Part shown: positions 5,730 to 38,689 of the stretch, one piece after another
Layout: each line of letters begins with the position of its first letter
Position numbering within the stretch: the first letter of the stretch is position 1
Assembly: GCA_963835065.1 (NCBI GenBank)
Contig: CAWIEK010000049.1
Span: 512,001 to 576,000, forward strand
Reading direction: 5' to 3'
DNA length: 64,000 bases
From: an uncultured Chthonomonadaceae bacterium
GTDB lineage: Bacteria; Armatimonadota; Chthonomonadetes; Chthonomonadales; Chthonomonadaceae
Notes under the pieces: model-generated
What the model saw: only the letters and a program-made list of their open reading frames with translations
What the model was told of the DNA's origin: nothing
The model's database searches: none
Position numbers and translations under genes: made by a program

Positions 5730-5764
5730 ACCACGGGGAACACGGGGAACACGGGGAGGAGAAC
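5727..5764 (+). repeat. 9-nt periodic repeat AACCACGGGGAACACGGGGAACACGGGG
   Basis: Seen directly; an inverted near-copy lies at 14896-14942. Confidence 0.8.
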
Positions 5765-5844
5765 AGGGAAAGATACGGAGAGAACCGCAAAACACGCTAA
5801 GGGCGCGTAAGGCTATGGCTTCCCGAACCATCGGGAAGCCTAAC

Positions 5845-5880
5845 TTTTTGCCAACGGCAAGTGGTGGAAGCGTTGGCAAA
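5845..5880. terminator. Hairpin terminator between convergent units
   Basis: TTTGCCAACG...CGTTGGCAAA stem with flanking T/A runs. Confidence 0.6.
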
Positions 5881-5999
5881 GCGGTAGATAGAAAAAAGGA
5901 TATGTAGAGTCATCGTCGAAATCTTGGCAATACAGCGCTTCCAGCCCGATGTCTCGTTGTGTCAAGTTGTAGGAGAGAGGCGTCGTGACCTCAGCAGCA

Positions 6000-6026
6000 T
6001 CAGGGCGAACGGGAGGGGTGAAACAT
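6000..6026 (-). CDS. Putative 8-aa peptide MFHPSRSP
   Basis: AGGGAGGTG SD 8 nt before ATG; same spacing, length and SRSP-TGA end in copy 2. Confidence 0.45.
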   Translation of the reverse strand: MFHPSRSP

Positions 6027-6084
6027 AGGCTCTGCACCTCCCTTCTTGTGTGTAACATCTGTATAGCAGACGTTGTTCTACTGT

Positions 6085-6112
6085 TTAGACGGCTGTGTGG
6101 GGCAAAGGGTTC
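6085..6112 (-). promoter_or_regulatory. ECF-sigma-like promoter GAACC-N17-GTCTAA
   Basis: Both boxes and spacer length conserved in copy 2 while the spacer sequence diverges. Confidence 0.6.
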
Positions 6113-6218
6113 ACTGTTTTTTGCGTTGTCTGAATCTTTTTTCTATCTTTTTTCTATCTTTGGCGGGATTGTTTCGGGATTGTTGCTGTTGGCGTCGTGG
6201 GAACGGACAAGAAAATAA

Positions 6219-9305: not shown

Positions 9306-9713
9306 TCAGGGAACAACGGTAAAGGCGCTTCCATCGGCTTTGCGGTACGCATAAAAATGGCTATCCAGGGTAAAAATGCGCGTCGTGTTCAGGGTTTCCG
9401 ATGCGGCGACGAGGGAAGCGTCGGCGAGGTCGCAGGGCAGGTCACGGTATTGCGTCATAACGGCAACGACGCGGGCCAGTTCCCCGTCATCTGCATGGTG
9501 AACGCGCAGCGCCCTTGCGGACAGCATTTGCAGCAGTATGGCGACACGCGGCCAGCCGCCGGATTTGTCCAGCAGATAAGCGGTTTCGGCAAGGCACGGC
9601 CAGGTAGTTTGCAGCCCCTCGCGGAATGAGGCAACGGCGGCAGTACATCGGGCGTGAGCCGGTTCGCGGGGATCAATCAGCGCAACAAGCGGCGTTGTAT
9701 CTGTGAGCATCAA
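9306..9713 (-). CDS. vapC: PIN-domain toxin (VapC family)
   Basis: LTDTTPLVAL, CLAET, DLADASLV, TLDSHF. Confidence 0.85.
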   Translation of the reverse strand: MMLTDTTPLVALIDPREPAHARCTAAVASFREGLQTTWPCLAETAYLLDKSGGWPRVAILLQMLSARALRVHHADDGELARVVAVMTQYRDLPCDLADASLVAASETLNTTRIFTLDSHFYAYRKADGSAFTVVP

Positions 9714-10048
9714 CGGCTGTTCTCTTTTGCTAAATCCTCAGCCCAATGGTTCCAGAGAGACTCCTCGACGTGATCCCCAAACTGCTGGTGCGTCGTGTTC
9801 GGCTGATACTGTTCCGGGTGAGCCGTTTGTGCGTCCCAGTGCGGCTTGAGAAACGCAAGCAGGCGCTCGCCTTCAGTAGGTTCCGGCGGATACTCAATAG
9901 ATTGTTGTTCTTCGGTTCGGGCGGTGTCGGTCAATTGCTGCAACGCCTCGGTCGCCAGTTCGTTCAGGCTTTTGCCCTGCGCGGCAGCAATGTGCATCAA
10001 TTGTTCCGCCAGTTTGTCATCAAGCGTCAGTGTCGTCATGGGCATCAT
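9710..10048 (-). CDS. Putative antitoxin with RHH-like N-terminus
   Basis: TLTLDDKLAEQL...GKSLNELATEAL; overlaps the vapC start; start codon uncertain (10039-10060). Confidence 0.6.
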   Translation of the reverse strand: MMPMTTLTLDDKLAEQLMHIAAAQGKSLNELATEALQQLTDTARTEEQQSIEYPPEPTEGERLLAFLKPHWDAQTAHPEQYQPNTTHQQFGDHVEESLWNHWAEDLAKENSR

Positions 10049-11490
10049 TCTCGCTTTCATCGCCTGTCTCGTCTGCCTCGTCGTCCGCTTCGATTTCTTC
10101 CCCGATGGTTTCCCACTCTGCCGCCGATTCCGAAACCGGAAAGTTCACGCCGCGCACGTCTATCTTTCCGGTGACAACATCGGCAATCAGGCGGGTACGG
10201 TACTCACGGATAAGTTCGATCTCGCATGTTGGCTTTATCTATTGCCATGCGTAATCCGCGCTGTCTCTACTCAATATAGGAATAATCTGATCCTTCCAAC
10301 ATCGGCCTTGCTCGTCAATTGACGGAACCGGGATGGTTATTGCCATTAAGCGGTCTTTGGTGAGTTTCGGTTGCGCGGCTCCGGTAATCCAAGGTCGGTA
10401 ATTTAGAGTTTCCATGACGAGAGCAAGGTATTCAAGTCTACCGCTTTTCGGCTTGAGAAAGTGCGCGTGATTGTTGACCCAAAATTTTCCTCGTGCGATA
10501 ATAGCGAGTGGCAGATTGCGAAGAACAAGATTCGCTCCCATCTACAATGGCAATTCACCAAGTAGGTTGTCTTCAAAGAGATAGACGTCACTTGTCAATT
10601 GCGGCTGACTGCGCCATAGTACTGTCATATTCTGCCGCAGATGTCATTCCTACGCCCGCTCATAATGCCATAAGCGTTGGGATGCGGCGCGTGATAAGGA
10701 AAACGCCACTTTCAGTTTTGTTCGGTGTCTTGCCTCTGTAATCAACTATCGAACTACCAACTTCGTAAGTGCTGTACTTGCCAATGCGCGGGGATGTCGC
10801 CGAGCCAGTCTACGCCGGAAGGCTTGCGGGGCGCGTCGGGGTCAAGGCCGACGGTGACGGCGCGGTGAATGACGGCCTGTTTCTGCTCGTGCAGGAGTTC
10901 GATCAGGCGGCGTTTGGCTTTGATGAGACGGTTTACGCGGTGGTCAGTGTGTTCGAGAAAACGTACAATAGCGTCTTGTTCGTCACGCGGAGGGCAGATA
11001 AGGCCTGAATGCGAAACGCTCGTATGTAAAGGCGTCAATGCCACTTCCCAACTCCGGTTAGAACGCTGTTCAGATTGGTCACATAATGCTGGCTGACTTG
11101 AATAAGTACTCGATAGTACCGCGGCATTGCCGTTTCCATGGGGGCGATAAACACGTGTACGCAGGACTAACAAGGCCATTTGCCGCGAGAACGGCGCATA
11201 CTCCATTCCACGCCAGCAGAGGTTATACGCAAGATCATTCGCGTCGTACTATCTCGTAGTTTCACCAGATGACGACTGTCTGCGAGTTCAATACTCGCTT
11301 TCATTCATCCAGGCGCGACGCCTGAATATTGGGATAGCCGACAGTATCTGAGCCGTCTTCGGATACGCCTGAGTTTACCTTCGTAAATAACAGATCTTAA
11401 CGACGCATATCGCCAATGCGCGGGTATCTGTCCAAGCCATTCGACGCCGGAGTTTTTGTAGGTAGAATAAGGTTTTAGACAAAGACTCAT
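10020..11490 (-). pseudogene. hsdS: Type I RM specificity subunit, multiply frameshifted as assembled
   Basis: KPYSTYKNSGVEWLGQIPAHW, central EQKQAVIHRAVTVGLDP...SGVDWLGDIPAHW, TRD fragment GKFWVNNHAH, C-terminal EYRTRLIADVVTGKIDVR; no continuous frame. Confidence 0.85.
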
Positions 11491-11535
11491 TGTGATTTTC
11501 CAATTGGGAGCGATACCGGATGTAGGATCGATACG

Positions 11536-12509
11536 GGGCAATCACGGCGGATTGCCCGTACCGCCGTTTATCTCTATCTATTGCGCTGCCAATGTAGGGG
11601 CAACCCCCTGTGATTGCCCTGCTATCAATTGGGCCGTGTTGGGGCAATCACGGGAATCAGGGCAATCACGGGAATCAGGGCAATCACGGGAATCAGGGCA
11701 ATCACGGGGGATTGCCCCTACGCATGGTTTGTGTTCTCGGCGTCCTTGTCCCATTGACCGGGATTGTTTTCGATGTAGGCGCGTATGGAATTGAGCGATA
11801 CCTCGTTGCGGACGATGTGTTCGTAATAGTTGCGTTGCCAGAGCCGTCCGGCGTAGGGTGTCCATCCCTGCCCCTTAACGCCGTCCGTGTACCGTTTCGT
11901 TGTCATGGTTTTGAAACGATGCACCACGTCCGGCAAGGACATGGTAGGGACAATCCCCCGTGATTGCTCCCGTTCCAATGATTGCTCCCGTTCCAATGAT
12001 TGCCCTGCTTCCCGTGATTGCTCGGTAGGTACAGGGGCAACCACAGGGGGTTGCCCGTACACTATTGAGTCACGATTTTGTGCCTGCCCGGTATTATTTA
12101 CCGTTTCCGGCGCGTCGTTGGGCGTCAAAACAATGATACCGTGAAAATGGTTGGGCATGACTACGAAGGCGTCCGTATCCACGCCATAATAGAAAATGGA
12201 CAATTCCTGCCAGATTGTTTCTATCATGCGGCCTGCGTCATTGAGAAGCATCTGCCCGTCAATGATCTCGCCGAACAGATTTTCCCGGTTCTGGACGCAG
12301 AACGTAACGAAGTACGCTCCGGCGCGAGTGTAGTCGTACCCTTTCAATCGAATAGAACGGCGATGATGTTGGTCTGGATCATGTTTTGTGGTCATGCCTG
12401 CGCCTTCGTTCGTAATGGGGGCAACCACGGGGGGTTGCCCCTACACGGTATTGTTTCGTTAATTATAACGGCAATGACATGGTACGGGCAACCCCCGTGG
12501 TTGCCCCTA
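11536..12509. repeat. REP palindromes GTAG/GTAC-GGGCAA(C/T)CCCC(C/T)GTG(A/G)TTGCCC around and inside the RAYT gene
   Basis: Copies near 11536, 11594, 11696, 11944, 12034, 12417 and 12482; 18-bp tandem GGGCAATCACGGGAATCA at 11642-11710. Confidence 0.85.
11718..12395 (-). mobile_element. REP-associated tyrosine transposase (RAYT, Y1 HUH)
   Basis: HRRSIRLKGYDY, YFVT, MPNHFHGII (HUH), WQRNYYEHIVR, YIENNP; flanked by REPs. Confidence 0.9.
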
Positions 12510-12819
12510 ATGACCTCACCCGGTAGCCCACCGAAATAATGACATCGAGGTTGTAGTAAGCGGAACGGTATCTTTTGCTATCGGCGGCAGTTGTCAAGTA
12601 ATACTTGACAACTGAATCTTCCTCCAACTCCCTTTCCGCAAAAATGTTACGAAGGTGCAGGCTGATATTCTGTTTTGTGGTCTGGAAAAGTTCCGACATC
12701 TGAGCCTGAGACAGCCAGACCGTCTCTCCCTCCAGACGCACTTCGATCTGCGTTTGCAGGTCTTCCGTTTGGTAGAGGATCAGTTCGGATTGTGGGGGAT
12801 TCTCATTGGCTTCGTTCAT
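12463..12819 (-). pseudogene. rhuM: RhuM-family protein, C-terminally truncated at a REP
   Basis: ETVWLSQAQMSELF...YNLDVIISVGYRVRS, then runs into REP-derived sequence. Confidence 0.75.
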
Positions 12820-14891
12820 TCTGCCGCCTCCGTTTCAATCAGGATTTCGCCAAGCAAACCTTCGGTTTCGCGCTCTAAGGCTTCTATGTCGGCGCGTATG
12901 GCGTCCAGCGAACGCAAGGGCTGCGGTTTGTAGAAATAGCGCGTGAACGAGATTTCATAACCGATTTTGGTGGCGTCCGTATCTATCCATGCGTCGGGAA
13001 CGTAGGGCTGCACTTCGCGGCAGAAAAAGGCTTCGATGCCGCCCGGTTCCAGAAGCGGAACCTGCTCCGTATCGCGCAATTCGGGGTCGGGTTCGTACTC
13101 GGTCGCGCCCCTGATGCGCCGAACAATGGGCGCGGCGGTTTCGTCTCGGACGGCAAGCGCGGACTGCAGCAGTTTCAAGCGCTTGGCCGGCAGCTTCACG
13201 CCCTGTTTGGCTGCGTCCCGCGCGATGGCCTCCGAAAACACGTTGTAGTCGGGATGGGGGCCGGGGCCGAGTGTGGCGGCAACGCGCTCCACGAGTGGCG
13301 CCAGCGGTTCCTCTTTCGCGTCCGCGCAGGCCGTCCGAAACGCAGCAAGACGCTCCGGCGACAGAGTTACGGACAGCCGCAGAGGACGCTCGACCGTGAT
13401 TTTCCAGTACCCGAACGCCTCATTGGGGAAAATCCGGCTTTGCGGGGTTTCTTCAAACTTGAGAAACGTATCCAGAATACGCTGCTGATCGGCATGGGAC
13501 AGTTCGCAGTTTTTCTTGCCCAGGTTTTTGCGCAGGGGCTTGAACCATTGCGTGGCGTCAATCAACTGCACCTTGCCGCGTCGGTGGTCGGGCTTGCGAT
13601 TGGACAGCACCCAGATATAGGTGGCGATGCCCGTATTGTAGAAGATATTGAGCGGCAGGGCGATAATGGCTTCCAGCCAGTCGTTTTCGCAAATCCAGCG
13701 GCGGATATTGCTTTCTCCCTGTCCCGCGTCACCGGTGAACAGGGATGAGCCATTATGGACTTCGGCGATGCGGCTGCCGTGCGGCGCGTCCGGCTTCATC
13801 TTGGACAGCATGTTGACCAGAAACATCAACTGCCCATCGGAAGAGCGCGTCAGCAGGCTGTATTCCGGGTCGCCCGCGTGGGTGATCATAAAGCGCGGGT
13901 CGCTCATGTTCTTCTTGCCGTCCCATCGGTTGAGATCGGCCTGCCAACTTTTGCCATACGGCGGATTGGAGAGGAGAAAATCAAAGCGGCGGTTGTGGTA
14001 TTCGTCCTGTGAGAGGGTGGAGGCCAGGCGGATGTTATCGGCGTCCGCGCCCTCGCCTTTGAGCAGCAGATCGGCTTTGGCAATGGCATAGGTTTCCGGG
14101 TTCACTTCCTGCCCGTACAGGTGAATGGAGGGCGTCACGCCGCGCTGCGCGGCCAGTTCCAATAGCCGCTCCTCGGCAACCGTCAACATTCCGCCCGTGC
14201 CACAAGCCCCGTCGTAAACGTGGTAACTTCCCGGCGTGATTTTGTCGGCAATCGGCAGCAGAATCAAATCCGCCATCAGCCGCACCACGTCGCGGGGCGT
14301 CCAGTGTTCCCCGGCCTCCTCGTTGTTGTCTTCGTTGAATCGGCGTATCAGCTCCTCAAAGATCGTTCCCATCGAATGGTTGTCAAGACCGGGCAGGCGT
14401 TCCGTGCCGTCGTCGTTCAGAACGGGGTTGGGCGACAGGTTGATTTTATCGCTGAGAAACTTGTCCAGCAGGCCACCGATAAGGTCAGCCTCCGCCAGAT
14501 GCGGTATCTGGTTGCGAAACTTGAACTTGTCCAGAATGGTACGCACGTTCTCGGAATAGCCGTCCAGGTATTCCTCGAAGTCGGCTTTCAACTGCGCCTG
14601 TTTCGTCTGCTTCTTCAAATCGCGCAGGGTAAACTTCGACGTGTTATAGAACGCCTGCCCTGCCTCGGAGCGCAGGGCGGCTTCCTTATCAATGACGCCT
14701 GCATTGTCGAGCATCGCGTTCATAGCGAGAACCGCCTGCTTGGTGTCTTCCAGCAGGGCGTCTAAGCGGCGCAGAACCGTCATCGGCAAAATCACGTCAC
14801 GGTATTTGCCGCGCACATAATAATCGCGCAGCACATCGTCGGCGATATTCCAGATAAAGCTAACAAGACTGCTATGCAGTGCCTGATCCAA
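12816..14891 (-). CDS. hsdM: Type I RM methyltransferase subunit M
   Basis: AGEHWTPRDVV, YDGACGTGGML, LSNPPYG, FYNTGIATYIW. Confidence 0.95.
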   Translation of the reverse strand: MDQALHSSLVSFIWNIADDVLRDYYVRGKYRDVILPMTVLRRLDALLEDTKQAVLAMNAMLDNAGVIDKEAALRSEAGQAFYNTSKFTLRDLKKQTKQAQLKADFEEYLDGYSENVRTILDKFKFRNQIPHLAEADLIGGLLDKFLSDKINLSPNPVLNDDGTERLPGLDNHSMGTIFEELIRRFNEDNNEEAGEHWTPRDVVRLMADLILLPIADKITPGSYHVYDGACGTGGMLTVAEERLLELAAQRGVTPSIHLYGQEVNPETYAIAKADLLLKGEGADADNIRLASTLSQDEYHNRRFDFLLSNPPYGKSWQADLNRWDGKKNMSDPRFMITHAGDPEYSLLTRSSDGQLMFLVNMLSKMKPDAPHGSRIAEVHNGSSLFTGDAGQGESNIRRWICENDWLEAIIALPLNIFYNTGIATYIWVLSNRKPDHRRGKVQLIDATQWFKPLRKNLGKKNCELSHADQQRILDTFLKFEETPQSRIFPNEAFGYWKITVERPLRLSVTLSPERLAAFRTACADAKEEPLAPLVERVAATLGPGPHPDYNVFSEAIARDAAKQGVKLPAKRLKLLQSALAVRDETAAPIVRRIRGATEYEPDPELRDTEQVPLLEPGGIEAFFCREVQPYVPDAWIDTDATKIGYEISFTRYFYKPQPLRSLDAIRADIEALERETEGLLGEILIETEAAE

Positions 14892-19859: not shown

Positions 19860-22800
19860 ATGCAAGACCCCCAGCAAACCAACATTGACAGCGTGATCCA
19901 TTCCGATGACCTGCAAACCCCGCCCACCGATGTTGCCGTAGCGCGCGTCAGCAACGGTCATAGCGGCAGCGACAAAGCCGAAAAGACCGACAAGGCCAAT
20001 GGCCGCGTGAAAGTGCCCGCCGACCCCGCCAATGGCAATACCAGCAACTTCCGGCTCAACAACGCGCCCGGCCTGACCGTCGAGCGCCGCTTCACCAAAC
20101 CCGGCGAGGATGTGTACAGCACGGTGGAATGGGAACTGCGCGACGCGGTAATCTCCAATGAGCGCGGCGAAAAGGTGTTCGAGCAGAAGAATTGCGAAAT
20201 TCCCAAGTCGTGGACGCAGCTTGCCACCAATGTCGTCGTGTCCAAGTATTTCCGGGGGCACGTCGGGACGCCCGAACGCGAACACAGCGTCCGGCAATTG
20301 ATCGGGCGCGTGGCGGATACCATTGCCAACTGGGGCCGCCGAATGGACTATTTTGCGACCGAAGCCGACGCGCAAACCTTTCAGGACGAACTCACCCACA
20401 TTCTGCTGCACCAGAAAGCCGCCTTCAACTCCCCCGTCTGGTTCAACGTCGGCCTCAAAGATCAGCCGACCCCTCAGGCCTCGGCCTGCTTCATCAACAG
20501 TGTAGATGATACGATGGAGTCGATTCTGACGCTTGCCAAGACCGAGGGCATGCTGTTCAAGTTCGGCAGCGGCACGGGAACCAACCTTTCCACTTTGCGC
20601 GGCTCCAATGAAAGGCTCAAAGGCGGCGGTACGGCGTCCGGTCCTCTCTCCTTTATGCGTGGTTTCGATCAGTTCGCGGGCGCAATCAAGTGCCTGACGC
20701 CGGATGCCTACATTTACACAGAGCGAGGTATGCAAACGCTTGGCGAAGTGATTGATACCGCGCAAGCGTCCGGCTTCCACCCAACGATTCAGTTGTGCTG
20801 GCGACCAAAGATGCCCCGACGCGCATCTCGCATGTCTACGTCAGCCCGGAAGCGGAAACCTTTCGCCTGACCTTGCAGCATACCAATCTATCCCTGCGTG
20901 GAACCGGTGAACATCCTGTCTTGACACTCACGCCCGAATTTGAATTGGTGTGGAAACGCCTGACCGACCTTGCCGTTGGAGATCGCGTGGCGGTTTCGCG
21001 TCATACCGACCTGTGGCCGAACGAACCGCCTTCCTTCGCGGACTTTCAGCCCTACATGAAATCCGCCAAAAAAACGCTGACATATCCCACGCAAATGACG
21101 CCGGAACTGGCGCGATTGCTCGGCTACATGATTTCGGAAGGCTGCATGGATGCGGAACGCTTCCGCTTCTGCAATGCGGATGAGGATGTGTTCGCTGATT
21201 TCATCGCGTGTGTGCGCTCCGTTTTCGGCATTGACCCGGTTCGCAACATCAGCAAGCGCGTTCATCCGACTACGGGAGTGACCACATGGCTTTTCGAGGC
21301 TTGCTGGACAAACGCGCTCCGGTTCTTGCAGCATGTCGGCCTGACAACGGCTCTTTCTAATGCCAAAACCGTTCCCTGGAGCATTCGCTGCGCCCCGCGT
21401 TCTCTGGTGGTCGAGTTCCTGCGGGCTTATTTCGAGGGCGACGGGCACGTTTCCACGCATGTTTACGCCGCCAGCGCGTCCGAAATCGCTGCTGCGCGAA
21501 GTACAATTGTTGCTGCTGAACATGGGTATGGTGTCGCTATTGCGTCCGCATCCCGTCAACGGCAAAAACTATTGGAGCCTGTATCTGCGTGGCGAACAAG
21601 CATGGCTGTTTGTGCGCGACATCGGGTTTGTGTCCGCGCGCAAGCAACAGGCGGCACAACTGGCAGGCGACAAGAACACCAACATTGACTCCGTGCCGTT
21701 TCTTGCAGACGTGCTGCGAACGCGCGTGTATGGCAAATATTTCCGATGCGAGGATGGCGTAAGCAGGCGGCTTGGCTTCAATTTCTTTGCCCGAAGCCCT
21801 GGCACTAATCTATCTTATAAACAACTCCGCAATGCGCCGGGGGTGGTGGAGAAGGTACGCCAGATAAATTCGGATTGGGGCGCAACTCTGGAAACCATTT
21901 TGCAGCGAGAGTTCTTCTGGGACAAAGTCGCCGGTGTGGAAGCTGCGGAGGCCGCAGTCACCTACGATTTCACCGTTCCTGAGACCCATTCTTTCATCGC
22001 AAACGGCATTGTAAACCACAATAGCGGTGGAAAAACCCGGCGCGCGGCAAAAATGACATTGCTTGATATATCACACCCGGACATAGAGGCGTTCATTGTC
22101 AGCAAGGCGGCAGAAGAGAAAAAGGCATGGGCGCTGATTGACGCGGGCTACAGCGGCATGTTCAACGTGCCCGGCGGCGCGTATGACAGCGTCCAGTTCC
22201 AGAACGCCAACCATTCCGTGCGCGTCACCGATGAGTTCATGCAGACCTACCTCAAAGGCGGGCAGTGGACCACGCGCAACGTGATGGATAAGCAGCCCAA
22301 CAAAACCTACGAAGCTGCCGACCTGATGAAGAAAATCGGCGAAAGCGCGTGGATTTGCGGCGACCCCGGCATGCAATACGATACCACCATCAACAAGTGG
22401 CACACTTGCAAAAACACAGATAAAATTAATGCAAGTAATCCATGTTCAGAATTCGTTTTCCTAGATGATACCGCATGCAACCTGGCTTCATTAAATCTGA
22501 TGAAGTTCCGCAACGAGCAGTACGACTTTGATGTGGAGCCGTTCAAGCATGCCTGCCGCGTCCTGATTATTGCGCAGGAGATTCTGGTGGACAACGCCAG
22601 TTACCCGACGCCGCGCATTCAGGAAAACTCCCACGATTACCGCCCGCTCGGATTGGGCTACGCCAACCTGGGCGCGTTGCTTATGGCGCGCGGCTTGGCC
22701 TACGACAGCGATGCGGGGCGCGCGTATGCCGGCGCGATCACGGCCATGATGACGGGCGAAGCGTACCATCAGTCGGCTATCATTGCCCGCGATCACGGTT

Positions 22801-25479
22801 GGGCGTTCCCCGGCTACCACAAGAACCGCGAACCCATGCTGGATGTGATGCGGATGCACCGGCAGGCGGTAGAAGACATTGACGGCAAACTGGTTCCCGC
22901 CGAGATGATGCAGTCCGCCCGCAAGTGCTGGGACGATGCCGTAGAAGTGGGAACCGGACACGGCTATCGCAATGCGCAGACAACAGTACTTGCGCCTACA
23001 GGTTGTCTTGTCGGCAACAGCCTGGTGCTGACCAGTCGCGGCCTGGTGCGGCTGCAAAGTCTGGGCAATCCAAACGGCAGCCAGTGGCAGCCGCTGGATG
23101 TGGAAGTTTCCACGAATGAGGGGGCGCGGCAGGCCACGCAGTTCTATGTCAATGGCGCGGAACCGGTTGTCACCATCGAAACCAAACGCGGCTACCGGAT
23201 TCAGGGTACAACTCTGCACCGCATCAAGGTTGTGGACGCGCAGGGCGAATGGCAGTGGCGGCGTTTTGGCGACATTCGGCCCAACGACCGCATTCCCCTG
23301 ATGCTTGGCGGGTTGGTGGGCGTTCCGCAGCAGGTGGCGTTGCCGCCTCTTGCCGAAGCGTACTGGACGTCTGACCATGCCACATTCGCGCCGCGCCGCA
23401 TGAACGCGGAATTGGCGGAGTTCGTCGGCTACTTTATGGGCGACGGTTCGCTGCACAGCAAAGGCATTCGCCTGTGTGTCGCCAATGAAGATCCGGATGT
23501 TGTCGCGCATCTGTCCGCATTGGGCAAGCAATTGTTCGGCCTGGAAGCGGCAATTACGGCAAAGCAGGGCTATACGGAAGTGTCCTTTAATTCCGTCGCG
23601 CCTGACGCTGTGGTGGGAAGCCTGCGGGTTTGCCAAAACTGCGCCGTCTGCGGATCACAGCGGCAAAGGCTATGCGCCCCGTATTCCCGATGCCGTTTTA
23701 CATGCCAACGATCCACAAGTTTACGCGGCGTTCGTGCGCGGTTTGTTTGAAGCAGACGCCTGCTGCACGAATGGCTATGTCGCCTGGACAACCACGCACG
23801 ACCAGTTCAGTCGGGATATGCAATCCCTCCTGCTCACGCTTGGGTTTGTGACGACCCGCAAGATAGACATGCCTGGCGAAGGCAGTTTCGGGACCAACCC
23901 GAAATATGTGCTGCGCCTGCTGAACGTATCCGTGACAGGACGCTTCGGTGAAGAAGTCGGCTTTCTGTCCGCGCGCAAGCAAGCGCTGACAAGACTCGGT
24001 CAGCATCCGCAAAGCGCCAAGCACGACCAGATTCCGCTCACCCGCGAAATGGTAGACCTGCTGGCGCCGGTCAATGACAGCCTGCGCAAAAACCTGCTGA
24101 TGTCGCTGGCGCGGCACGGAACGGTATCGCGCCAGTTGGCAGAGGAACTGCTGACACGCGCCGCGCATCCCAAACTCGGCCATCTGCTCGGCTTCTTTTA
24201 CGATGAAGTGGCAACGGCGGAGTTGGGCGAGGAACAGTTTACTTACGACATTTCCGTTCCCGACAATGTCACTTACGTTGCCAACGGTTTCGTCAGCCAC
24301 AACACCATCGGCTTCCTCATGGATTGTGACACGACGGGCATTGAGCCGGATATTGCCATTGTCAAGTACAAGAACCTTGTCGGCGGCGGCGTGATGAAAA
24401 TCGTCAACAACACCGTGCCCGAAGCCCTGATGCGCCTGGGCTATTCGGAAGCGCAGGTAAAAAGCATCATCGCTTACATTGACGAGCATGACACCATCGA
24501 AGGCAATCCCGACCTCAAGCCGGAACACCTGTCCATTTTCGATTGCGCCTTCAAGCCCGGCAACGGCGAGCGTTCCATTCACTATCTTGGGCATGTCCGC
24601 ATGATGGCTGCCGCGCAGCCGTTCCTTTCCGGCGCAATTTCGAAGACGGTCAACATGCCGCATGAGGCGACGGCAGAAGAAATCATGGGCGTTTATGTCG
24701 AAGGCTGGAAACTCGGCCTCAAAGCCATTGCCATTTACCGCGACGGCTCCAAGCGCACTCAGCCGCTCATGACGAAAAAGGCGGATAAAACAGATGAGGG
24801 AAAAGGGAAAAGGGAAGAGGGAACAGAAGCCACCCCAACACCCAACACCCTTACTGTCAACAAGCCGTTGCGCCGCAAGCTGCCGGACGAGCGGGCGGCT
24901 ATGACCCACAAGTTCAGCATTGCGGGACACGAAGGCTATATTACGGTGGGCATGTACCCGGATGGAACGCCCGGCGAAATCTTCCTGACCATGAGCAAGG
25001 AAGGCTCGACGATTTCCGGCCTGATGGACTCGTTTGCAACCGCCATATCGCTCGCCTTGCAATACGGCGTTCCGCTGCAAACGCTTGTGGACAAGTTCGC
25101 GCACGCCCGGTTTGAGCCGTCCGGCGTCACCAACAACCCGGATATTCGCTTCGCCAAGTCCATCATGGATTACATCTTCCGGTGGCTCGGCTCCAAGTTC
25201 CTCAACCGCGTGCCGGAACCCACGCAACCCACGCTGTCGAATGGACACGGCGAAGAGACTGTGGCGCTTGCCGCCGATGCCCCTCCCCTGACCCTGACCG
25301 CAGCCCCGGCAGTCGAGACGCCGGTTCCGGCGCAATCGCTGTCGCTGGCCGAACGGGAACACCAGACGTTCCAAAATCAGGCTGACGCGCCTATCTGTAC
25401 GGAGTGCGGCGCAATCATGGTGCGCAACGGCGCGTGTTTCAAATGTCTGTCGTGCGGTTCCGTGTTCGGCTGTTCGTAG
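19860..25479 (+). CDS. nrdJ: Vitamin B12-dependent (class II) ribonucleotide reductase with two inteins; frameshifts near 20780, 21480 and 23597
   Basis: FNSPVWFN, QASACFI, SGGKTRRAAKM, SNPCSEF, APTG|TI, SGAISKTVN, C-terminal TSCPD-like domain and Zn ribbon. Confidence 0.93.
20691..22022 (+). mobile_element. Intein 1 with LAGLIDADG homing endonuclease
   Basis: GAIK|CLTPD...FIANGIVNHN|SGG; blocks LGYMISEG and FLRAYFEGDG. Confidence 0.9.
23004..24303 (+). mobile_element. Intein 2 with LAGLIDADG homing endonuclease
   Basis: APTG|CLVGN...YVANGFVSHN|TIG; blocks VGYFMGDG and FVRGLFEADA. Confidence 0.9.
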
Positions 25480-28067: not shown

Positions 28068-28168
28068 TTGTCTTGAACCATGATTTTGCATGATTAGGAG
28101 GATTAGCATGATCAGGCTGGTCTTCCTCATGGTAATCCTTTAATCCGGTAAATCCTGGTTCAGACAAT
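28068..28168. repeat. ~100-bp palindromic element, copy A
   Basis: TTGTC(T)TGAACCATGATT...AATCCTGGTTCAGACAA; inverted near-copy at 30363-30462. Confidence 0.85.
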
Positions 28169-30350
28169 CTCCCATTCTATAGTGACAGGGCGTGAATCTG
28201 TGTATGGCAGTTGAAATTCCAGAAGGTGGGTGTCTTCCGCGTAGGTGAAGGGCAGAATGAGATTGCCTTCGTGAACCTGCGCGGGGCGCGTTTCGCACCA
28301 GGCCAGAAAACGGCCTTCGCCGCGTAAACGCATGGCAAGCCTCCGCTGCGTTGCCGTTTTTTCCATCGCGTCATATTCCAGAATCGCGCCTCCGCTGTTG
28401 TACATATCCGCAAGGCCGATAGGCGCAAAACCTTCCATGATCCGCGCAACGGTGAATATATCGCCCGTCAGCGCAGGCATCTCGATTTTCCAGCGCTCTG
28501 AAGCCTGCATTTTGCGGCACTCGCCGGTGGAATGGCGGTAAACGGCAAACTCATCAAGGCCGCGCCAATCATGTATATCAGAGGGAGAGACATGCCCGGC
28601 AATGGTTTCCGCCTGTTGTACTTCCGGTTGCGGCGCGGCAACATCCGACAGCGAGGCTTTCTCCACGTTTGCAGCGTCACCGGGTACGGGCGGCGTGTCG
28701 GGCGCATGGTAGCGCGCATTGAACACGCCAATCACGCCACACATCATCCGGCATATAATTTTCATTGAAGATTTTGAGCAGAATATTTTCTTTCGTCGGG
28801 TCGTGGAACAGGCAGTCGCGGGTCGGGAGTCCGGGATTGGGCGCGCGCAAAACGGTTCCATTGGGCAGTACCAGTTTGCGCAGTATGTCAAAGTTGTGCG
28901 TACCGGGCTTGTCGGAAACGTATACGGGACTGCCACTGACGGCGCGCGCCATCGCGTGAAATTCGCCCATCGCGTGTCCCGACTGAAACATATCCCAATC
29001 GGGGTGTACGAACTCGCCGAACCACAGGCTGACGAGCGCGTTGACGTACAGGTGTTCGCCGTGCGATTCGGGCTTGTTGGGCCAGAAATCGGTTGATGTG
29101 CGCGTGATCGTGGAATTGAGCGCGCTGTACAGCATGTCATTGGCGCAGGACATGCAGTTGATAACATTGCCGTCGAAGTGCGTGTTTACCGAGCCTTCGA
29201 GCGCCTCGTGGTAGTTGCGCATCAGGCGGACGCGCCCACCCTCGCCATACGCGATGCCTTCAATCGTGGCCTGCGTATCCACCTTCACGCCGTCCACGCC
29301 CTGTTTGCGCAGATGCCGGTGATAATCCTGAAAGAAGCGGTAAATATCCTTGCCGCTGACCAGCCCGACTGTTTCGCCCCACCATTGCGTGTTCATCATG
29401 GGACGATGGTGCAGGATTCCGGGCGCAAAACGGCGCGAAGTCGGGCGAACGTCATACTCAGGAAAGGCTTCCTCATCCACGCCGCCCCAGTAGCCATTGA
29501 GCGCATGCCAGACAAGAAACGTTTTTACGCCGTATTCTTCCTTCGCCATGCGGATCATGGGAGCCAGATCGCCCGGAAACTTTTCGTTGGCGGCAAACGC
29601 GGTCAGGCGCGTTTCGCCCGAATCGCGCTTGCGAACGGATTGCCAGCCGTCGTCCAGAATCAGCAGGCGCGGCTGTATTCCGCCCGCCTTGAAACTTTCC
29701 AGCCCCTCTTTCACTTTGTCCTGCGACACGTCCTGATAAAAAGCGTCCCACGTACACCAGCCGAATTGATCTACAAATTCGGGCAGAAACTTCTCGCTGC
29801 GGATTCGTCCCGTCTGCATCCGGTCCATGACGCTGTAGCGCGCCGCGCCCATGAGCGGATAAGGGCTGAAACAGTCAGCAATGAACAGGGCTGTGGCTTC
29901 GCTTGCGCAAACGGATGGATCGTTGGACTCGACCACCAATTCCAGGCCGTTTTCGCCCGCGCCCTGCAAACTCGCCCGAAAGTTGCCATCCAGAATGGGC
30001 GCGAACAGAATCACGCTTTCATCCGCGCGCTCGCACAGCAAGAATTGCGTTTCCGGGGGCACATCGCCGCCTGTCGCGCCCACTTTCGCGGTCATCCAGA
30101 ACGGCTCATAGCGGTGGGCGCACACAAGGCGCGTCACGTTCTGCAATTCGCCAAGCGGAAACACAAGCCGCGAACTCGGCTTTTCCGCTATGCCCCCGAC
30201 GAACACGCCGCTATCCATGGATTCGTCGGCTGCCAGAGTTGTCGCAGCGGGCATGTTGGCGAGAATAGCAACGCCATCGGCGCTTAACACGCCGTCTTCC
30301 AGCGTCCAAACCGTTTCAAAACCGCTTTCTGAGGGAACATTGATAGGCAT
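28160..30350 (-). CDS. Sip1/raffinose synthase-like alpha-galactosidase (GH36); frameshift near 28740
   Basis: FGWCTWDAFY, ILDDGWQ, VWHALNGYWGG, GVDGVKVD, INCMS, PDWDMFQS, VYVSDKPG. Confidence 0.9.
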
Positions 30351-30362
30351 AGTGGGTTCCTG

Positions 30363-30462
30363 TTGTCTGAACCATGATTTCACATGATTTAGATGATTAC
30401 CATGATGAAGACCAACCTGATCATGCTAATCCTCCTAATCATGAAAAATCATGGTTCAGACA
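30363..30462. repeat. ~100-bp palindromic element, copy B
   Basis: TTGTCTGAACCATGATTT...AAATCATGGTTCAGACAA. Confidence 0.85.
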
Positions 30463-31859: not shown

Positions 31860-32065
31860 GGCTGCACAGGACGAAAGGCCAGCTGTAGGCGCGACGTATG
31901 CCGACAGAGTATAACTTTAGAGCCACCCCAATTTGAAGGATGATGGATGAGGGTATGTAAAAAAGATATGTAGAGGCAACGTCGAAATCTTGGCAATACA
32001 GCGCTTCCAGCCCGATGTCTCATTGTGTCAAGTTGTAGGAGAGAGGCGTCGTGACCTCCAAAGCG

Positions 32066-32092
32066 TCAGGGCGAACGGGAGTGGACAGGCAT
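32066..32092 (-). CDS. Putative 8-aa peptide MPVHSRSP
   Basis: AGGGAGGC SD 8 nt before ATG; parallels copy 1. Confidence 0.45.
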   Translation of the reverse strand: MPVHSRSP

Positions 32093-32175
32093 CTTCTTGC
32101 GCCTCCCTTCCTGGTTAGTTGATAGGAACTGCGAACGTTCAGTCTTCCTTTTTGTTTAGTAGACACTTGTACTGT

Positions 32176-32203
32176 TTAGACATCGGCAGTGGGAAAAAGG
32201 TTC
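32176..32203 (-). promoter_or_regulatory. ECF-sigma-like promoter GAACC-N17-GTCTAA
   Basis: Conserved with 6085-6112. Confidence 0.6.
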
Positions 32204-32426
32204 GTTATTTTCGCGTTGTACGGCTCCATTTTTTATCTTTTTTCTATCTTTTTTGCGGGATGGCTGCTCGGGATGGTTGCTGTTGGCGTTGTGCAAATTT
32301 GTACATGCGTGAAGGATTTATTAAAGCATGTGGCGAAGAGGATAGTAATTGGCAGTTCTCTTGCTTTGCGTTGCGCAGCAACAACATACAGTGATTTCTT
32401 TCTGCATATTGCGCGTGAGGTAAATT

Positions 32427-35535: not shown

Positions 35536-38500
35536 CTGACTGGTTTAACGAACTGCAACAGAAGAAGCAGAATATGTTGGCAGGGAACCTAGCCACAGGA
35601 GATTGGGATGGTATCCGGGATACCATCGTGAACCCAGTACTCTGAGGATGGACATTTCATATACGAATTGCTGCAAAATGCTGACGATCAGAACGCGCAT
35701 GAAGTGCGTTTCCATTTGCAGGCAGACCATCTGATATTTGAGCATGATGGTAAACCCTTCGAGCGCAGCGATGTGGAAGGCATCACCCGCATTGGCACAA
35801 GTGTCAAACTGGAACAACACAATAAAATTGGACGCTACGGCATTGGTTTCAAATCCGTGTACGCCGTAACAGACTGTCCGCAGATTTATACGCCATCTGG
35901 ACGGGAAGCCCTTTGCATTTGAAATCAGCAACCTGGTTGTGCCGCAACACTTGCCGATTTGAGAGGATCATCCGCAAGGGGGTTCAACGCGCTTTGCGCT
36001 GCCGTTCAAGGCAGGCCATGAAGCTGAAACACATGCGAAACTCGCTGGCAAATTGCGAGGTTTAGGCGCGAAAACAATTATGTTCCTAAACCACTTGAAA
36101 CTTGTGTCATGGGAGACAGCAAGCCAATCCGGGGTATATGTTTGTGAGCGGCCAGCTACCCCGGATGGTATCTGCCGGTTGGAACGCGAACTTACCTCAG
36201 AGGGCGTTGTTCCCGAACGGGAAGAAGCGCGTTATCTGCGCTTTTCAAAGCCTGTACCATCCGTTGATGACAGAACCAATTTATCGGTCGCTATCGCGTT
36301 CCGATTAGATGATGACGAGCAGATCACAGAAGAAAAAGGCGAAACCTTCTTGAGTGTGTACTTCCCAACTAAAGAGAAGACACGCCTCAAATTCTGCTTA
36401 CATGCGCCTATGCTGCTGACACTGGAACGCGCCAACGTCCAAGAGAACCACCCGACAAATTCAAGCCTGATCAGAAGAATGTGCCTCCTTGCTTGCTGAA
36501 ACATTGCCAAAACTTCGGCAGCGAGGATTGCTTACGCCGGAATGCTTGTGTTGTTTGCCCCTTCGGCATCAAGATTTTCCTGCTTCGGCGTGAAGTGAAT
36601 GGCACAGCGTATGAGCGTGGTTCATTTTTCAGACCGCTTTACGATGCTGTACGCTATACAATGCTCAGTGATGAGCCTCTCATTCCTACCGACACAGAGC
36701 AAACATGCCACTGTTAAACAAGCCAGAATCCCTGAAACTGCCTGTTCGTATCCTGCTAAACCAAAAGCAAATCACTGGCCTGCATAACCAAACGTCTGCG
36801 AACCCGATATGTTGGACTTCAGGAAAAAATCAAAACCGGCGTGAGCAGCCCTACGAGCGAACTGTACTCATACTTGCAGGAATTGGGCGTAAAACCTGTT
36901 GATCTTGCAGACTTTGCAAAGATGGTCAAGGCTAACCCTTGGTTTATGGAGGAGCAATCGGAAGATTGGTTGATACGCTTCTACAATGTTTTGCTGGACA
37001 GACCTTTTTTATGGGAGAAAGGTAAACCTGACGCGATCCTGCGTCGAACCAACATCATTCTGACTGGAAGATGGCAGCCATGTCGTACCTTTCGATGTGA
37101 ATGACAAGCCAGCAGTTTACTTTCCTCTCCCAAACATCAATGATGCCCGCTTTCCGGCAGTAAACAAAAACATTCTGCTAAATTCGGGAGCGGTGAACTT
37201 TCTACGTCGTTTAGGATTGAGCGAACCTGATAAGGTTGATGTTGTGATTGACTACGTATTGCCCAAGTACAAGTCGAATGCAACGCCCTATGATGTGGTG
37301 CAATACGCTAAAGACATTGCCGTAATTGGGCAAGCGGTTGAGGAAGCCAGCCATTCCGCTTACGCATCAGCAAGACGCAGTGACTTGGAGCGTGAATTGA
37401 AACGCGCGAAATTTGTTCTCGCTACCAACCAAGCAACCAAAAAGAATACATTGCTACGGGCAAAAGATGTCTACTCTCCGACGCCTGAATTGTCAGCATG
37501 GTTTGATGGTTGTTCAGAAGCGTGGTTTATCAGTGATGCCTTGCAAAATCTGCAAGGTTGGAAGGCTATCGCAGCGTTCCTGAACCAGCATGGCGAAACG
37601 ATCACTGATACGCTTGTCATACAAAGAACTCAACTGTTGAGAGATGACCGAATGGAGGCGCAACTACCGGATAAGAAAGGATACGTGAAACTAACCGACA
37701 AAAAGCCATATAAACGCGGATTGAACCGCTTTGATCCGGGCGCAGATATCGCAGGGCTTGCCCATGCTGTTCAGCATCCAACTTTAGAAAGAGCAAGATT
37801 GCTCTGGAAAATGCTGGGTGAACACTCTCATCTTCTGATAGGCGAAGTTGAAACTGCCATTGATGCGCGTTTTACTCTGCCTGACAAGGACAGAATTGCA
37901 TCCAAAATTTGGGATGCTTGCCATAACACAGTATGGCTGCCCGACATTAACAACGTTTTTCGAAAACCAGCCGAGTTAGACTTAGCGAGTCTGCCCCATG
38001 ACTTTGACAAAAACACGTCCGCAGCCAAACAAGTGGCACTGGATTTGGGCATGAAGAAGGTTGCGCCGCAAACAGATACGGAAAAACTCGCGGAAAAGTT
38101 GGGTGTTCCGCCTTCTGCTATTGACCTCATCAGTAAGAATCCTGAAGGATTCAAACAATGGGCCAAAGACCAACAGAACTCCGCTAATTTCCCAAGTGGG
38201 GATCCAGCTTCGGAAAGACGCTTGAACAAACTAGGAGAATATCAACCAAACGCGCCAATGGTGGAGCGAGCGGAAAAATTGCGCAGCATACGAATTTCGT
38301 CAACGCAAATAAGCGCTGAGGATAAGGCACACCTTCGACTTTTGTATGACAAAGACGGAGATATGCAGTGCCAAATCTGCTGTGGAAAAATGCCGTTCAA
38401 AGTGAATGGGGCAGATTACTTTGAGGCAGTACAATGTATCCGCTTGGAAAAGCAGGAACTTCTTGTCAACAGATTGGCGCTTTGTCCAACCTGCGCCGCC

Positions 38501-38689
38501 AAATACCTTCATGCCAACAGCTATAAAGCCACTCAGGCGGATATGGCAAAACTCAAGCAGGCCATTCTATCCCTTGAAGGAGAATGTCTGCCAATTACAC
38601 TGGCAGGGGTTCCACATAAAATCCATTTCAAACGTAAACATCTGGATGAACTGAAGAAGGTTTTCAGCACAGCGAAGCATCAAGATTAG
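35532..38689 (+). CDS. Sacsin-like GHKL/HSP90 ATPase with C-terminal HNH-like Zn domain; many frameshifts in the 5' half
   Basis: HFIYELLQNADD, EHDGKPF, IGRYGIGFKSVY, VYFPT...LHAP; C-terminal CQIC...YFEAV...NRLALCPTC; ATGA-coupled to the SNF2 gene. Confidence 0.75.

Follow-up and report, generated by a model that had tools for sequence, protein, structure and literature searches.

Dispersed repeats that reach the copy number described here are usually read, in bacteria, as neutral MITE or REP debris. The LDR and SIB/Ibs loci of Escherichia coli (sibling small RNAs, type I toxin-antitoxin) are self-contained repeated units with their own promoter and a small reading frame, as is the element described here, and its copy number is far above theirs. 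Unlike them, the element has no hydrophobic toxin frame on either strand (its sense frames encode eight or nine polar or Pro-rich residues, and antisense frames from the one conserved GTG run from <10 to >100 codons), and no antisense promoter was seen. Termination-arrest leader peptides, among which we take RAPP-type peptides to belong, resemble the frame of the element. TnaC, PheL and PepNL share with it a short frame, a strong Shine-Dalgarno (SD) sequence, Pro before the stop, Arg two residues earlier and RNA structure downstream, whereas the element has no regulated downstream gene, 8-16 codons with a variable N-terminus, and 160 copies rather than one (PMC11890864, PMC3082878). Published accounts describe the C-terminal Pro-UGA of E. 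coli pheL as a site of readthrough, tmRNA tagging and frameshifting (PMC3082878) and report that TnaC overexpression depletes tRNA-Pro (PMC11890864). Toxic tRNA-sequestering minigenes also combine an SD with a very short frame and a slow last codon, so that dosage could drain one tRNA. Their inhibition weakens with length across 3-8 codons; the frame of the element differs in lying at or above the upper length tested, in its several Pro codons and in its conserved structured 3' domain (PMC2490762). The nearest described case is that of QMITE1 and QMITE2 of Coxiella with CbsR3, CbsR13 and CbsR16 (PMC5896051). QMITEs have tens of dispersed intergenic copies, a promoter inside the repeat, full and truncated forms and a small RNA output, as does the element, whose expression is predicted; unlike QMITEs, 137 of the 162 copies here, both window copies among them, lack terminal repeats of the shell, and selection acts on promoter, SD, frame and helices in nearly all of the 162, whereas about one QMITE2 copy is reported to be transcribed (PMC5896051). 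Finally, 15 copies share inverted ends with autonomous ISAs1 insertion sequences (PF13808) of a same-genus relative, G002, and a near-perfect 10-bp target duplication accompanies eight of the 15; unlike ISAs1, the module is cargo and is absent from the autonomous elements. The module belongs to none of the known families with which it was compared, except as MITE cargo in a subset of copies.

Well over 100 copies, spread across three species, retain promoter, SD, Pro-stop frame, 7-nt spacing and three helices, whereas their transposon shell decays. An RNA that did hold ribosomes would let a small RNA throttle translation through the number of its genes. Two testable questions follow: whether a motif of 2-3 residues plus a hairpin suffices to stall termination, and how copies stay even and homogenised in a chromosome.

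The window is a 64,000-nt stretch of a genome of 8.0 Mb in 71 contigs (92% complete; G000), compared here with two genomes of the same genus, G001 and G002; L-numbers denote loci in relatives. It holds two copies of the element on the minus strand, copy 1 at 5886..6195 and copy 2 at 31953-32289, as the original prediction had placed them. That prediction described their anatomy largely correctly: the cores are identical at 110 of 117 ungapped positions (best start 6015), short direct repeats lie upstream in both, GAACC-N17-GTCTAA stands at 6112-6085 and 32203-32176, and 8-codon frames ending CCC-TGA encode MFHPSRSP (6026-6000) and MPVHSRSP (32092-32066). The AGGGAGG motif of a strong SD is also present (6043-6037; 32108-32102), but its distance to the ATG is 10 nt in copy 1 and 9 nt in copy 2, not 8 nt. 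The features are as follows.

5760..6205, strand not assigned: block present in G000 and absent at the orthologous G002 ccmF-hsdR junction (L125); approximate, as are its ends
6113..6195, minus: copy 1, conserved upstream shoulder with A-tracts and short direct repeats (column conservation, 162 copies), putatively UP-element-like
6085..6112, minus: copy 1, ECF-type promoter pattern, -35 GAACC 6112-6108, 17 nt, -10 GTCTAA 6090-6085 (box conservation)
6066..6071, minus: copy 1, second -10-like box, 19 nt downstream (columns 0.90-0.99 conserved)
6037..6043, minus: copy 1, Shine-Dalgarno (SD-like motif in 158/162 copies)
6000..6026, minus: copy 1, mini-frame MFHPSRSP-stop (frame statistics, three genomes)
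5977..5992, minus: copy 1, hairpin H1, 5 bp, starting 7 nt past the stop (consensus fold, compensatory changes)
5956..5976, minus: copy 1, A/C-rich, G-poor linker, predicted single-stranded (unpaired in consensus fold)
5901..5955, minus: copy 1, 3' domain with P1, P2 and near-invariant loop, then conserved CAUA (consensus fold)
5955-5951 with ~5911-5907, minus: copy 1, helix P1; 5946-5939 with 5921-5915: helix P2 (consensus fold)
5938-5925, minus: copy 1, near-invariant 14-nt loop, closed by P1 and P2
5890..5900, minus: copy 1, U-rich tract past the core, without adjacent terminator stem (terminator scan)
32204..32289, minus: copy 2, upstream shoulder and A-tracts (alignment)
32159..32203, minus: copy 2, -35 32203-32199, -10 32181-32176, second box 32164-32159 (alignment)
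32066..32108, minus: copy 2, SD 32108-32102 and frame MPVHSRSP-stop 32092-32066 (alignment)
31956..32058, minus: copy 2, H1 32058-32043, linker, P1/P2 domain, invariant loop 32004-31991, CAUA, U tract (covariance model)

The window pair had been taken for a two-copy duplication; the two are in fact members of a set of 162 dispersed copies in G000, found by BLAST with a 153-nt core as query. These lie on 60 of the 71 contigs at a density of about one per 50 kb, and 161 of the 162 cores are distinct. A profile search of G000 gave no copies beyond the BLAST set. G002 holds 47 copies and G001 13, for a three-genome total of 222, of which 218 were parsed for the frame and spacing counts. Copy 2 scores 135 bits with covariance model R1, a model built with copy 2 included. 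No homologue was found by BLAST in 38 other relatives, nor by covariance model among 80 candidates scored per genome in 39 other genomes of the family or 23 candidates scored in 140 genomes of the phylum, a set that overlaps the family set. Metagenome contigs searched with one exact pattern held no copy, and 11 pattern matches in viral sequences all scored <=13 bits. The family had been called unrecognised, and rightly so: Rfam 15 covariance models gave 0 matches at gathering score across the window, and in E-value mode left the cores of copy 1 and of three related loci unmatched. No description of it was found in the main texts of open papers; supplements or motif surveys in closed journals could hold one. 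The module is a real, selected and undescribed high-copy family of mini-gene RNAs, restricted to one genus among the genomes searched, with a predicted function. A reading as attL/attR-type direct repeats flanking an island was rejected because 162 copies exist and housekeeping genes lie between the window copies. At G000:C54:109036, C19:86542 and C6:695, promoter-side fragments are severed from the core by intervening sequence, at least one of them by another repeat; copies are therefore also being destroyed.

Selection on the module had been predicted, and promoter boxes, frame, spacing and compensatory helices all bear it out. When the 162 copies were aligned with no requirement for the motif, conservation was mostly 0.91-0.99 in the box columns and 0.63 in the spacer, and all nine box bases are intact in 134 of 162 copies, where spacer decay predicts 1.5%. 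The expected ECF-type pattern is thus present as conserved boxes at fixed spacing, GAAC/GTC being what we take to be the ECF consensus; judged from this pattern alone, the RNA would be stress-induced. The second -10-like box occurs in 132 of 145 promoter-bearing copies, 15-21 nt past the -10 (17-20 nt in 121), and one guess is that it may be a sigma-dependent pause site. Of 158 matches to the promoter pattern genome-wide in G000, 111 lie inside elements, and the copies would therefore make up most of the regulon of that sigma factor. None of the 57 sigma-70 region 2 matches in G000 was identified as the cognate sigma, nor does any ECF gene clearly carry a self-promoter of the element type (best score 9.6 against an element median of 25.6). 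The ECF promoter is replaceable. A different upstream motif stands in about 10 of the 47 copies of G002 (a regex gives 11, of which one is spurious), and the ECF pattern is absent from 4-5 of the 13 G001 copies. The core persists beneath three or more classes of upstream sequence and is therefore no by-product of a single promoter. The alternative class of G002 has an extended -10-like motif (L028, L034, L075, L078-L080, L082, L084, L085, L094), and that of G001 has a long hairpin leader, 15-16-codon frames and non-ATG starts (L012, L015, L019, L021).

The conserved micro-peptide also withstood comparison, as the frame behaves as if translated: its length changes keep frame and its stops switch synonymously. 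Pro stands directly before the stop in 216 of 218 copies from the three genomes, against 8.4% of 4914 ordinary genes, with all four Pro codons in use, and Arg occupies position -3 in 198. Stops are TGA in 180, TAA in 37 and TAG in 1, and the next base is C in 193 of 218. An SD with an in-frame ATG is found in 204 of 218 copies, against 4 and 1 in the other frames, and frames are mostly 8 or 9 codons long, with a maximum of 16. The N-terminal half of the peptide varies freely and 13 of 218 frames end Leu-Pro-Pro; any arrest would therefore rest on 2-3 residues. A longer protein made by readthrough or a +1 shift was rejected because linkers of 20-27 nt break frame and 14 of 162 copies have an internal +1 stop.

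A structured RNA had been predicted, and a consensus fold with compensatory changes supports it. RNAalifold was run on 53 sequences, the two window copies and 51 of the relatives' 58 copies, and gave H1 followed by P1 and P2, which close the near-invariant 14-nt loop. With the structure derived from the same alignment, 98.6% of cells in these 53 sequences are paired against 46-55% in slid controls, with 12 double changes and 0 of 500 shuffles. Compensatory changes occur in all three helices and G-U wobbles favour the element (sense) strand. The double changes lie mostly in one G001 subfamily and therefore represent few independent events. H1 is paired in 100% of cells, with A-U to U-A in five G001 copies and a third paired version in G001 copies L117 and L118, outside the 53-sequence alignment. 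Its distance from the stop is 7 nt in 208 of 218 copies, and G makes up 257 of 4591 linker bases in the 218 parsed copies. Single window strands fold no better than shuffles (z -0.12 for copy 1, +1.60 for copy 2), and G000 strands alone fold weakly, with a P2 probability of 0.37.

Two features proposed for the 3' part did not hold. There is no terminator-like site at the core end of either copy, where a terminator hairpin had been expected. Around copy 1 the main terminator matches are that of hsdR itself (6258-6219) and the plus-strand ccmF terminator (5817-5840), with a weak 5-pair minus-strand match at 5745-5731, ~155 nt beyond the core; copy 2 has one minus-strand terminator-like site at 31859-31836, ~110 nt beyond. 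The downstream anti-SD proposed to pair with the SD is present in 104 of 159 G000 copies and in 0 of 59 from the relatives, and its 5' half overlaps the 3' arm of H1, a local hairpin. The SD is mostly paired in silico (0.84). Pairing of the invariant loop with 16S or 23S rRNA was rejected, the longest matches of 7-9 nt equalling those of shuffles. One uncontrolled 10-nt match of the loop to a tRNA-Gly was set aside. Outside elements the full 14 nt recur exactly at three places, each in coding or probably coding sequence and unaccompanied by the remaining core. A covarying inverted repeat that would join the A-tract upstream to the T-tract downstream was likewise rejected (own pairs 7.18, cross pairs 7.21, p 0.63). 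Likeness to a Cas12a repeat, Y RNA, tRNA arms, group II intron ends and small ribozymes, judged by eye, was dropped because diverged copies lose it.

A soil RNA run (X1, share 0.06) contained one 197-nt contig of a related copy, with 98 nt of core and then an SD and frame of the same family. This is a weak hint of transcription only, since the organism could not be demonstrated in the run and unitigs break at repeats; contigs matching a control stretch with tmRNA were mostly diverged (79 of 106 <90% alike).

We propose, tentatively and with somewhat less than even confidence, that each copy is a stand-alone stress-induced small RNA gene whose RNA parks ribosomes at the Pro-stop and exposes the invariant loop. 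An ECF sigma factor would switch on the element, to judge by its promoter pattern, and yield an RNA of ~170-260 nt. This RNA would load a ribosome through its SD and the mini-frame would be translated, as the frame-keeping length changes and synonymous stop switching suggest. The ribosome would then be held at Arg-x-Pro-stop; slow termination is proposed because Pro precedes the stop, C follows in 193 of 218 copies and H1 lies 7 nt on. The mRNA entry channel would meet H1 about 7 nt past the stop. The held ribosome may present the folded 3' domain and invariant loop, on a flexible linker beyond its footprint, to a partner, and the RNA would act in trans through its dosage, either soaking up ribosomes or prolyl-tRNA or carrying the loop. 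In keeping with a stand-alone RNA, no consistently co-oriented downstream gene is present among 153 copies. The in silico pairing of the SD argues against very efficient ribosome loading. Copies are spaced more evenly than chance would have it: of 105 gaps, 4 are <10 kb where 23 would be expected, and the CV is 0.74 against 0.97. The short-range deficit holds for direct and inverted pairs alike, and ribosome parking does not account for the even spacing. A wider version, which we regard as doubtful, is a chromosome-wide, gene-dosed translational brake: ~160 evenly spaced mini-genes under one stress sigma would make RNAs that park ribosomes at the Pro-stop and hold or hand them over through the tethered domain. 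In that version the family would travel as transposon cargo, and its copies would be renewed where they lie, promoter included, through replacement by other copies.

Spread would have been partly as cargo between ISAs1 ends, with homogenisation by conversion or replacement, the ends and duplications being seen in a subset. ISAs1-type inverted ends flank 15 of 162 copies on both sides and 10 on one; the other 137, including both window copies, have neither. A 10-bp target duplication, identical at 9 or 10 positions, accompanies eight of the 15 shelled copies. The shell ends match autonomous ISAs1 elements of G002 (L121, L122), which do not carry the module; no PF13808 (ISAs1 transposase) was found in G000, 92% complete, and no autonomous same-end partner in G000 or G001. 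The 137 unshelled copies show duplications in 20 (21.7 when shuffled) and no excess of flanking direct or inverted repeats, and other repeats lie in the flanks of 90 of 162 copies. Sites were compared at 81 loci covering ~1.6 of 7.5 Mb of G002: three of four strictly syntenic G000 sites are empty in G002 and one G002 site is empty in G000. At 13 of 37 testable G002 loci the G000 counterpart of the neighbour lies within 1 kb of a copy, as against 5.5% of genes. Of 20 flank comparisons at shared sites, 17 match in both side and orientation, and in 19 of 20 the copy of the relative (G002 or G001) is closer to copies of its own genome than to its positional partner. The site of copy 2 is syntenic on both flanks, and G002 holds there a copy with a different promoter class. 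Such comparisons suggest that copies at shared sites are converted or replaced in situ; hot spots that repeatedly take up oriented insertions are a possible alternative source. A 110-row tree, its resolution poor, groups copies by genome with a degree of mixing, and copies are not enriched at synteny breaks (4 of 28 against 90 of 388, p 0.35).

Some reverse transcriptases (RTs) of G000 are presumably CRISPR-linked, to judge from their neighbours. Its Y1 transposase genes at C42:76421-76894 and C51:103020-103472 are flanked by their own multi-copy palindromic repeats, and we take these loci to be RAYT/REP-like. As mobiliser of the element, a retron type XIII RT, a CRISPR-type RT and a Y1 transposase were each rejected, there being no shared core sequence at their loci (PMC7736814, PMC13712802). 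PADLOC assigns a retron type XIII RT to 3 of 3 genus genomes and also to 4 of 39 others without the element, and the three RT loci have no core match. Nor does the element resemble a retron ncRNA, as its transcript ends share a mean of 2.3 predicted pairs and no long 5'-3' inverted repeat. The type XIII RT operon is kept in all three genus genomes (G000:C50:52482-58854, L220, L221), where the RT follows the upstream gene after a gap of only ~94-128 nt that consists partly of heptamer repeats; no ncRNA of the operon was found at the three loci.

The same data can be read as a selfish expressed repeat, in which the RNA domain would promote the element's own copying or replacement, as a scaffold for some recombinase or transposase, and the mini-frame would only shield the RNA from Rho or decay. 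Copy numbers of 13, 47 and 162, sites gained or lost between relatives, shared sites that agree in orientation (17 of 20) while sequences are genome-specific (19 of 20), the promoter difference at the site of copy 2 and an under-dispersed spacing such as target immunity would give all favour it. Yet no enzyme travels with the module, the autonomous ISAs1 elements lack it, the RT and Y1 loci share no core, and 137 of 162 copies are without ISAs1 ends or a flanking-repeat excess; with 161 of 162 cores distinct, there was therefore no burst of identical young copies. We consider this reading rather unlikely. That the element is a neutral MITE relic with a chance promoter and SD could draw on the 15 copies between ISAs1-type ends, the eight near-perfect 10-bp duplications and the repeat-rich flanks (90 of 162), but the contrast of boxes with spacer, stop switching and compensatory helices across three species, in a cargo kept while its shell decays, largely refutes this reading and leaves it a slight chance.

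Gene context bears on the remaining readings. With genes called by the analysis's own caller, 153 intergenic copies have both neighbours called. The downstream gene is on the opposite strand in 94 of these (p 0.006), 54 of the 94 ending within 100 nt, and of 82 elements in tandem gaps 58 are antisense and 24 sense (p 0.0002); there is no leading-strand bias (54 of 120). Together with the lack of a terminator at the core end, this bias would suit a dispersed cis-acting silencer, whose ECF-fired unterminated transcripts run antisense into neighbours and damp ~100 loci. The same bias follows, however, from selection against polar sense insertions; neighbours inspected have no common function and ordinary GC content, sites are often unshared between relatives, and a silencer needs neither the invariant loop nor the Pro-stop frame, all of which makes it improbable. 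The orientation bias argues against a TnaC-like leader attenuator, in which a stalled ribosome would hide a Rho site so that the downstream gene is read. Although a Pro-stop frame precedes a C-rich, G-poor linker, and in G000 and G002 alike a glycoside hydrolase gene follows copy 2 on the same strand, only 59 of 153 copies have a co-oriented gene, sense placement is disfavoured in tandem gaps (24 against 58) and copy 1 faces ccmF head-on; we give this reading very little credence. The last reading is that the element marks or regulates defence islands, the original prediction having raised the marking of defence-gene hotspots as a possibility. Both window copies do touch such genes, hsdR (type I R subunit) at copy 1 and an SNF2/DrmD-like helicase at copy 2. 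The sacsin named beside copy 2 was not confirmed: 37097-38689 has no Pfam or PADLOC match, and 36053-36499 only weak PADLOC TmtA matches. Four gene families served as defence proxies: adenine-methylase, PIN, ResIII and AAA_21 (for the last, the 19 best of 71 matches). Within 1 kb of these there are 11 of 162 copies where 6.1 are expected (uncorrected p ~0.03), and 5 of 16 adenine-methylase loci have a copy within 3 kb where 2.2 are expected (uncorrected p ~0.05). These excesses are weak: PIN and AAA_21 sets are at chance, and within 3 kb of the four sets there are 14 copies against 12.0 expected, leaving 148 of 162 without any. In G002, moreover, ccmF and hsdR abut with the same terminator and without the element (L125; gap 95 nt against 538 in G000). 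Copies genome-wide thus largely lack a defence association, and hotspot marking is the least credible of the readings.

Several other observations concern the window and the genome. The type I RM locus at window 9306-14891 (minus strand) is split between hsdM and hsdR by an insert with a RhuM fragment, a Y1-transposase-like gene, a 100-aa specificity-domain fragment and a PIN/RHH toxin-antitoxin pair, and no full-length hsdS was seen. Elsewhere in the window, a class II ribonucleotide reductase with intein and LAGLIDADG matches spans three long frames (19860-25479, plus strand), and a raffinose-synthase-family gene lies in two overlapping frames, possibly by frameshift (28160-30383, minus strand). 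At G000:C49:430274-432286, 16 tRNA genes on one strand form a phage/island-array-like cluster with an element copy <1 kb upstream. Intergenic tandem arrays of 7-9-mers are abundant genome-wide, often as inverted pairs (for example window 5730-5760 and G000:C54:97021). One array type occurs at 316 places, and arrays sit in many element leaders and tails; they are reminiscent of the heptamer repeats of cyanobacteria.
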